From Escherichia coli (GTDB lineage Bacteria > Pseudomonadota > Gammaproteobacteria > Enterobacterales > Enterobacteriaceae): 64,000 nucleotides of DNA. Below the pieces are notes generated by a model that did not search any database, was not told the origin of the DNA, and was given only the letters and a program-made list of their open reading frames with translations. A program made the translations under genes and the position numbers. Of this stretch, positions 13,990 through 14,421 are shown piece by piece. Numbering within the stretch: position 1 is the stretch's first letter; each line of letters opens with the position of its first letter. The stretch lies in assembly GCF_050920415.1 (NCBI RefSeq), contig NZ_CP169310.1. The stretch is one strand, 5' to 3'.

Positions 13990-14421
13990 TTAAAACCATA
14001 CATGTGCCAGCACAGTTCCCCCGATAATCAGTATCATCACTGCGGTAAGGCCGAGAAGAGACACATTCATCACACCAACCCGTCGGGAAACCGCATCCAT
14101 CCCGATTAAAAGGCGGACGTAAGCTTCATTTTCCTTAAGCTGTGTTCTGAGCTCTTCCACCGACGAAGATATCACGGGCAGCAACGGATGCGCGGGGTCG
14201 GTTTTTTTAAGTCTCAGCCGGGTTCTCAGTAAAGCTTTCAGGAAGGCGCACCCCGTCTTGTAAAACTCCATGTTGCAATATTCATCCTCGCTTATGCAGT
14301 TTTTCAGCGATGCCAGCTCTGCCGTAAAGCCATAACGCTCAGGAATATTGTCCACGGATAACGCGCTCAGTATGTCTGCTGTTTTTCCCCGGATGTCATC
14401 AGGGTCAGGGAAGGTTTCCAT
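13990..14421 (-). CDS. Hypothetical tail-anchored protein (143 aa) between traI and traX
   Basis: ORF with a single C-terminal transmembrane helix; F itself has no gene at this junction as far as I recall. Confidence 0.5.
   Translation of the reverse strand: METFPDPDDIRGKTADILSALSVDNIPERYGFTAELASLKNCISEDEYCNMEFYKTGCAFLKALLRTRLRLKKTDPAHPLLPVISSSVEELRTQLKENEAYVRLLIGMDAVSRRVGVMNVSLLGLTAVMILIIGGTVLAHVWF

Follow-up and report, generated by a model that had tools for sequence, protein, structure and literature searches.

In the F plasmid, TrbA, TrbE, TrbF, TrbJ and TraQ are short, membrane-associated proteins whose genes are co-oriented among the essential genes of the transfer (tra) operon and are dispensable or lineage-restricted; the frequencies of these small non-essential proteins have been surveyed (PMC5102898). 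Here we describe an open reading frame (ORF) of the same well-known kind, small membrane proteins that transfer operons may carry or lack. It comprises 143 codons and lies between traI and traX, at positions 13990–14421 of a 64,000-nt stretch of Escherichia coli DNA (the window; RefSeq assembly GCF_050920415.1, contig NZ_CP169310.1). The ORF resembles the F proteins in size, predicted membrane association, orientation and patchy occurrence, and one of its homologues (locus L007) sits in the slot held by trbA/traQ in F. Unlike the small Tra and Trb proteins of F, it has no sequence or profile similarity to F tra-region ORFs, and its family also occurs in plasmid contigs of another backbone (VirD4-type coupling protein, topB, hns and mobC) that showed no F-type pilus gene.

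Further described systems share other traits with the ORF. TraS of F (PF10624) and Eex of SXT/R391 are likewise small, fast-diverging inner-membrane proteins encoded within transfer operons and unneeded for transfer itself, and the specificity of Eex is located in a cytoplasmic segment. TraS is polytopic, whereas the ORF product has a single predicted C-terminal helix, and the two lack similarity. An identification of the ORF as TraS was rejected, as it has no Pfam match and the real TraS of this plasmid is encoded at 25067..25570 (PF10624, E = 1e-84). In its predicted architecture, the product is of one class with TssL/DotU of the type VI and Dot/Icm secretion systems and Flk of flagellar export, which work at the cytoplasmic face of a secretion apparatus and have a helical domain in the cytoplasm that a single C-terminal helix holds at the inner membrane. 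Lastly, PifC (F), FipA (pKM101) and Osa (pSa) are encoded by dispensable plasmid genes, often near transfer genes, and target the coupling protein or substrate of another plasmid. The ORF is similarly dispensable and plasmid-borne, without similarity to any curated Pfam or NCBIfam family. We judge fertility inhibition to be the functional class that may be most compatible with its distribution.

The earlier note on this DNA, which had reported a 143-aa ORF between traI and traX, was confirmed by the reading frame, its ribosome-binding site (RBS) and the RefSeq annotation. The features of the locus are as follows.

13990..14421, minus strand: ORF for the predicted tail-anchored protein, 143 codons plus stop with an ATG start, RefSeq WP_000447372.1 'hypothetical protein' (direct reading of the sequence)
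14431..14436, minus strand: Shine–Dalgarno-like GAGGAG, 9 nt 5' of the ORF ATG (direct reading of the sequence)
14080..14421, minus strand: codons 1–114 of the ORF, predicted cytoplasmic all-helical domain (AlphaFold model and alignments)
13993..14079, minus strand: codons 115–143 of the ORF, predicted C-terminal hydrophobic transmembrane anchor that extends the last helix (hydropathy and per-site entropy)
13905..14466, minus strand: lineage-specific module of ~560 bp consisting of spacer, ORF, spacer and the first ~21 traX codons, boundaries approximate (junction comparison with F-type plasmids)
13964..13975, strand not assigned: direct repeat copy 1 (11/12), TCCATATCATCA, corresponding to the traX start-codon context
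14417..14428, strand not assigned: direct repeat copy 2 (11/12), TCCATATCAGCA, corresponding to the ORF start-codon context
14470..19740, minus strand: traI (relaxase/helicase), upstream neighbor of the ORF (PGAP start)
13231..13968, minus strand: traX (F-pilin acetylase), downstream neighbor of the ORF

The traI stop codon (14470) is followed by 48 nt and then the ORF, whose own stop lies 21 nt from the traX start (13968). A consensus scan of these two short gaps detected no promoter-like or terminator-like sites on the minus strand. With no such element separating the ORF from either neighbor, the simplest reading would be co-transcription with traI, traX and the tra operon. An Rfam scan found no RNA element at the ORF locus, the sole match in the window being located elsewhere (12190–12372), and the family hidden Markov model (HMM) detected no second copy of the gene within the 64 kb. 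The GC content of the ORF is 49.8%, compared to 57.6% for traX and 59.6% for traI. The ORF stretch is 100% identical to a region of pCFSAN004180G from E. coli 09-00049, a 225-kb IncFIA/FIB plasmid typed MPF_F, where WP_000447372.1 is also encoded between traI and traX.

Several lines of sequence evidence indicate that the ORF is a real gene. Ratios of nonsynonymous to synonymous substitution rates (dN/dS) were 0.28–0.47 against five E. coli and Salmonella alleles with 75–89% protein identity and 0.12–0.33 against Klebsiella homologues with 34–37% identity, for which dS was saturated. No full-length sequenced allele contains an internal stop codon. The RBS core GGAG is kept, as AAGGAG or AGGAGG, in the alleles L004, L010, L011 and L013, along with the ATG context. 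Because the dS values of the ORF to E. coli and Salmonella alleles (0.19–0.31) are close to those of the adjoining traX (0.23–0.32), it appears to have diverged in place with its neighbors rather than having arrived recently in each plasmid. A non-functional relic or a mis-called ORF, for which the missing known domain and the existence of natural IS30 truncations could be cited, is very improbable, given that dN/dS stays far below 1 across dS values up to saturation, that all full-length alleles keep an intact frame and that length and architecture are retained down to 19% identity with a conserved RBS. As judged from these comparisons, the ORF is shown to be a genuine protein-coding accessory gene with its own RBS in the distal part of the F-like tra operon. 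The IS30-truncated homologues occur in three E. coli plasmids that represent natural knock-outs; in L005 (NZ_CP024241.1, 4001–4243), the homologue is cut after ~60 codons and IS30 lies directly downstream.

We then compared the traI–traX junction across plasmids, as the earlier note had proposed. Its statement that the two genes adjoin in F was correct: the F traI stop (97943) and traX start (97963) are separated by a 19-bp gap without an ORF, and the genes are likewise adjacent in ~99% of the plasmids that share the flanks. When a 1.5-kb query was run against PLSDB, 4,962 plasmids matched, of which 51 spanned the ORF; carriers overall amount to ~1% (about 55–60 plasmids). The gene is thus neither in all F-like plasmids nor, as a core transfer gene would be, in nearly all of them. 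In a spread sample of 60 matches, at least 58 of the other 59 lacked the ORF segment, most showing traX and traI matches that were ~475 bp closer together and a few matching in the traX flank only. Homologues identified with tblastn were present in 85 of 72,556 plasmids (57 from Escherichia, 19 from Klebsiella, seven from Raoultella and two from Salmonella), 76 of them typed as conjugative. Among 5,426 complete E. coli genomes, 68 carried the gene, with 69 of its 70 places plasmid-borne. Because F and ~99% of related plasmids lack the ORF, this distribution shows that, on genomic grounds, it is dispensable for F-type transfer.

The comparison also delimited the variable segment. Homology to F-type junctions ends 3 nt past the traI stop and restarts ~21 codons into traX. 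The first ~21 traX codons of the window (MENMNNTVGVVTMKPREW, MENMNNT..., 13905–13968) are unrelated to those of F (MTTDNTNTTRNDSLAARTD, MTTDNTN...), and this alternative traX 5' end was detected in 55 plasmids, which are those that carry the ORF. Since both occur in the same plasmids, the lineage-specific unit is apparently a module of ~560 bp that combines the ORF with the traX 5' end, and the loss of homology from after the traI stop into traX points to module replacement rather than a clean insertion. A plain insertion with target-site duplication was partly rejected, as the bracketing 11/12 direct repeat represents two similar start-codon contexts.

The earlier note had further described a single C-terminal transmembrane helix behind a soluble N-terminal domain, which is supported at the level of prediction by hydropathy, an AlphaFold model and family conservation. 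A single hydrophobic segment spans approximately residues 115–143 at the C terminus. The best 19-residue window covers residues 120–138 with a Kyte–Doolittle value of 2.39, compared to a maximum of 0.33 in residues 1–100; R113-R114 precede it and five uncharged residues follow. The N terminus, METFPDPDD, is acidic and not signal-like. This lone segment with a short tail, N-terminally flanking positive charges and no signal peptide is the predicted layout of a C-tail-anchored inner-membrane protein. On the basis of the positive-inside rule and the missing signal peptide, the product is predicted to adopt an N-in orientation with its domain in the cytoplasm. AlphaFold2, using a nine-sequence alignment, returned a model with a mean predicted local distance difference test (pLDDT) score of 86.8 and a predicted template modeling score of 0.69, with pLDDT values of 83–97 in ten-residue blocks across residues 11–110. 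It contains helices at 7–21, 23–30, 33–42, 50–74 and 81–142, the last bundle helix running on into the membrane segment.

This architecture is kept throughout the family. All 21 aligned members, ranging from 89% down to 19% identity to the window protein, are 130–148 aa long and have a C-terminal tail with a Kyte–Doolittle value of at least 1.95. In the family alignment, M1 and K62 are invariant and L61, R92 and N98 are at least 90% conserved. L61, K62, R92 and N98 as well as the strongly basic helix 4 (LLKALLRTRLRLKK) all fall within the predicted soluble domain. Across 74 close alleles, the anchor was the most variable part, with a per-site entropy of 0.68 bits versus 0.16–0.38 bits for the cytoplasmic helices and inter-helix loops; its sequence varies while its hydrophobicity is conserved. 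A hypervariable specificity patch in the soluble domain was considered and rejected, with variation concentrated in the anchor.

No relative with an assigned role was identified. Scans against Pfam, NCBIfam, PADLOC and PHROGs gave no match for the ORF (for PADLOC and PHROGs, zero families at E ≤ 10), and Pfam searches with all 21 family members yielded nothing consistent, the best being scattered matches at E ~0.03. Sequence profiles of the PDB, queried with two alignments, produced nothing better than E = 0.047, and fold comparison of the model retrieved generic four-helix bundles only. Searching the six-frame ORFs of the F tra region (62000–99159) with the family HMM detected no homologue (best E = 0.99), and hhalign comparisons with TrbA, TraQ, TrbF and TraS gave probabilities of at most 0.5%. 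The gene is not listed in the 'Five shades of F' gene inventory, and searches of the accessible literature for the accession, for a gene at the traI–traX junction and for tail-anchored proteins of conjugative plasmids returned nothing relevant. The earlier note had assigned no function, and this still holds for databases, structure libraries and the literature.

A profile search of 1.84 billion representative proteins detected 24 clusters at E ≤ 0.001, mostly of 130–148 aa or fragments of that length, and all sources name the members 'hypothetical protein' or 'Transmembrane protein'. Judged by these matches, they form a very small family that has no name and is confined to the conjugative plasmids of Enterobacterales, on which all examined members reside. 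The window protein shows a full-length profile match, L61-K62, R92 and N98, the C-terminal anchor and the transfer-region context that characterize the family. By the same profile evidence, the window ORF is the founding member, for this window, of a small plasmid-restricted family without homology to a known Tra or Trb protein. The family occupies these positions.

traI–ORF–traX: the window and loci L004 and L010–13
traI–ORF–traX again, with a homologue of 45% identity on a divergent plasmid: L014
traI–traX–finO–ORF, followed by dsbA/PIN/DUF2726/PLD or repA: L002 and L015
mobF–DUF6012–ORF: L003
traF–ORF–trbB-like, within the F-type pilus-assembly block: L007
mobC–ORF(–ORF), followed by ardC on the opposite strand and PLD, on plasmids with a VirD4-type coupling protein, topB and hns: L008, L009 and L018
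SLT–HTH–ORF near a nikA/relaxase pair: L019–21

The protein of the last arrangement matched the family less strongly (first profile search, E = 6e-5) and was included in the expanded alignment A2. Wherever the flanks were readable, the gene was co-oriented with transfer genes, in at least six arrangements on several backbones and always inside or at the edge of transfer clusters. Two divergent copies are present in some loci, in tandem in L018 (7001–7447 and 7484–7909) and L008 (1–279 and 315–743) and 1.8 kb apart in L009 (3818–4219 and 6001–6414). These two-copy loci come from one contig of Citrobacter koseri and from related plasmid contigs of metagenomic origin, where the copies lie downstream of mobC and beside ardC and a PLD-family gene. 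When a 1.8-kb query containing mobC, both ORF copies and the 3' end of ardC was used, the ORF part was covered in none of 190 matching plasmids, which indicates that the gene is an occasional accessory in the mobC-type backbone as well. These results extend the earlier note: the family is confined to conjugative plasmids, takes other positions elsewhere and here forms one module with an alternative traX 5' end.

The contexts bear on whether the product could serve TraX or pilin maturation, either as a membrane-tethered cofactor of the acetylase or by handling propilin in the manner of TraQ. Consistent with such a role, the ORF lies directly upstream of traX, is strictly co-inherited with the alternative ~21 N-terminal TraX residues (55 plasmids, same set), recurs as a 45%-identical homologue between traI and traX in the divergent plasmid L014 and, in L007, takes the trbA/traQ slot of F. 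However, in Klebsiella-type plasmids the gene follows finO rather than traX, and it is present in mobC–ardC–PLD contigs, with no traX seen in the stretches read. TraX functions without the ORF in F and ~99% of relatives, the ORF resembles neither TraQ nor TrbA, and plain linkage is already expected to keep the ORF together with the initial 60 nt of its neighbor. We therefore regard a dedicated partnership with TraX as rather improbable.

Similarly little credence is given to a phage-exclusion or abortive-infection effector or a toxin, in which a cytoplasmic sensor would be coupled to a membrane-perturbing helix and expressed when pili expose the cell to male-specific phages. In favor of this scenario are the small size and predicted single membrane pass of the protein, its patchy occurrence on plasmids, the tandem paralogues of some loci, its presumed expression with pilus genes and the conflict genes found beside homologues on other plasmids (ardC, DndB, an antirestriction protein and toxin–antitoxin modules). 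Against it, neither PADLOC nor PHROGs gave a match, no antitoxin-like or other partner gene is conserved next to the ORF across contexts, and the anchor is the least conserved part of the protein, whereas membrane-active effectors usually constrain this helix.

Our preferred reading, held with low confidence and a probability of roughly 30%, is that the product could be a membrane-tethered adaptor or inhibitor that modulates DNA transfer from the cytoplasmic side of the inner membrane. We propose this because constraint falls on the soluble domain and because the family follows transfer genes on unrelated backbones, in many cases immediately behind a gene for the relaxosome (traI, mobF or mobC). 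The putative target would be the coupling protein or relaxosome, as these hosts share no other machinery on that side of the membrane. The protein might either tune the docking of coupling protein and relaxosome of its own plasmid or interfere with that of a competitor, as fertility-inhibition or exclusion factors do, and the exposed basic helix (K62/R66/R70/K73) is a candidate contact surface. A more far-reaching version, to be viewed as doubtful, is that the ORF founds a new family of membrane-tethered cytoplasmic conjugation regulators or inhibitors that is common to unrelated backbones (F-like and VirD4/topB/hns/mobC) and acts on the coupling protein or relaxosome, for example by a new fertility-inhibition or exclusion mechanism.

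A further explanation, unlikely as well though of some weight, is that the gene is hitch-hiking cargo that uses the tra operon for expression only and acts outside DNA transfer, for example in host membrane physiology, stress tolerance or colonization. The same operon holds other lineage-specific junction ORFs without known domains as well as vapBC, the GC content (49.8% versus 57.6–59.6% in the flanks) suggests a foreign origin, and the spread is patchy (~1% of F-like plasmids and 68 of 5,426 complete E. coli genomes). Generic cargo, however, should also turn up in chromosomes and in other plasmid regions, whereas every context examined falls within or borders a transfer cluster, in the same orientation, and 69 of 70 places in E. 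coli are on plasmids.

At present the ORF counts as a well-delimited, ordinary hypothetical gene, and it gains interest only if the transfer-modulating activity proposed above is real. In E. coli, Salmonella and Klebsiella, virulence and resistance genes travel mainly on F-like plasmids, and the carriers of the ORF include virulence plasmids of enterotoxigenic E. coli as well as large plasmids of isolates from cattle and food. Optional tra-operon genes are candidates for explaining large differences in transfer rate and plasmid compatibility between close relatives. If the ORF had no transfer phenotype, it would document the use of tra-operon junctions as cargo slots.

Additional lineage-specific ORFs occur at other junctions of the operon in the window.

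22656..23309, minus strand: 217-aa ORF within the unannotated 1 kb that follows traD, with a hydrophobic helix at its N terminus
23621..24232, minus strand: lipoprotein-like ORF between traT and traD, with an LIQGC lipobox if the GTG at 24232 is the start
35136..35516, minus strand: 126-aa ORF between trbC and traN
36401..36763, minus strand: 120-aa ORF in the 0.8-kb unannotated trbC–traU gap

The two annotated among these, 23621..24100 and 35136..35516, were scanned against Pfam and gave no match. Taken together with the ORF at 13990..14421, they point to a use of tra-operon junctions as slots for cargo. A vapB–vapC toxin–antitoxin pair lies between traD and traI on the opposite strand (19822–20447, plus strand), and RefSeq annotates the same in F.

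Outside the operon junctions, the Rfam match at 12190–12372 (plus strand) corresponds to the antisense RNA AS-pc02 (RF02876, 197 bits, E = 3e-52) and overlaps a 70-aa hypothetical ORF (12269..12481, minus strand) between finO and hha. The repA-proximal region encodes three hypothetical proteins without a Pfam domain (5596..6060, 6339..7379 and 10485..10949, all on the minus strand). The 346-aa protein among these three is encoded by DNA that is AT-rich by eye and looks like foreign cargo beside a Tn3-family transposase.
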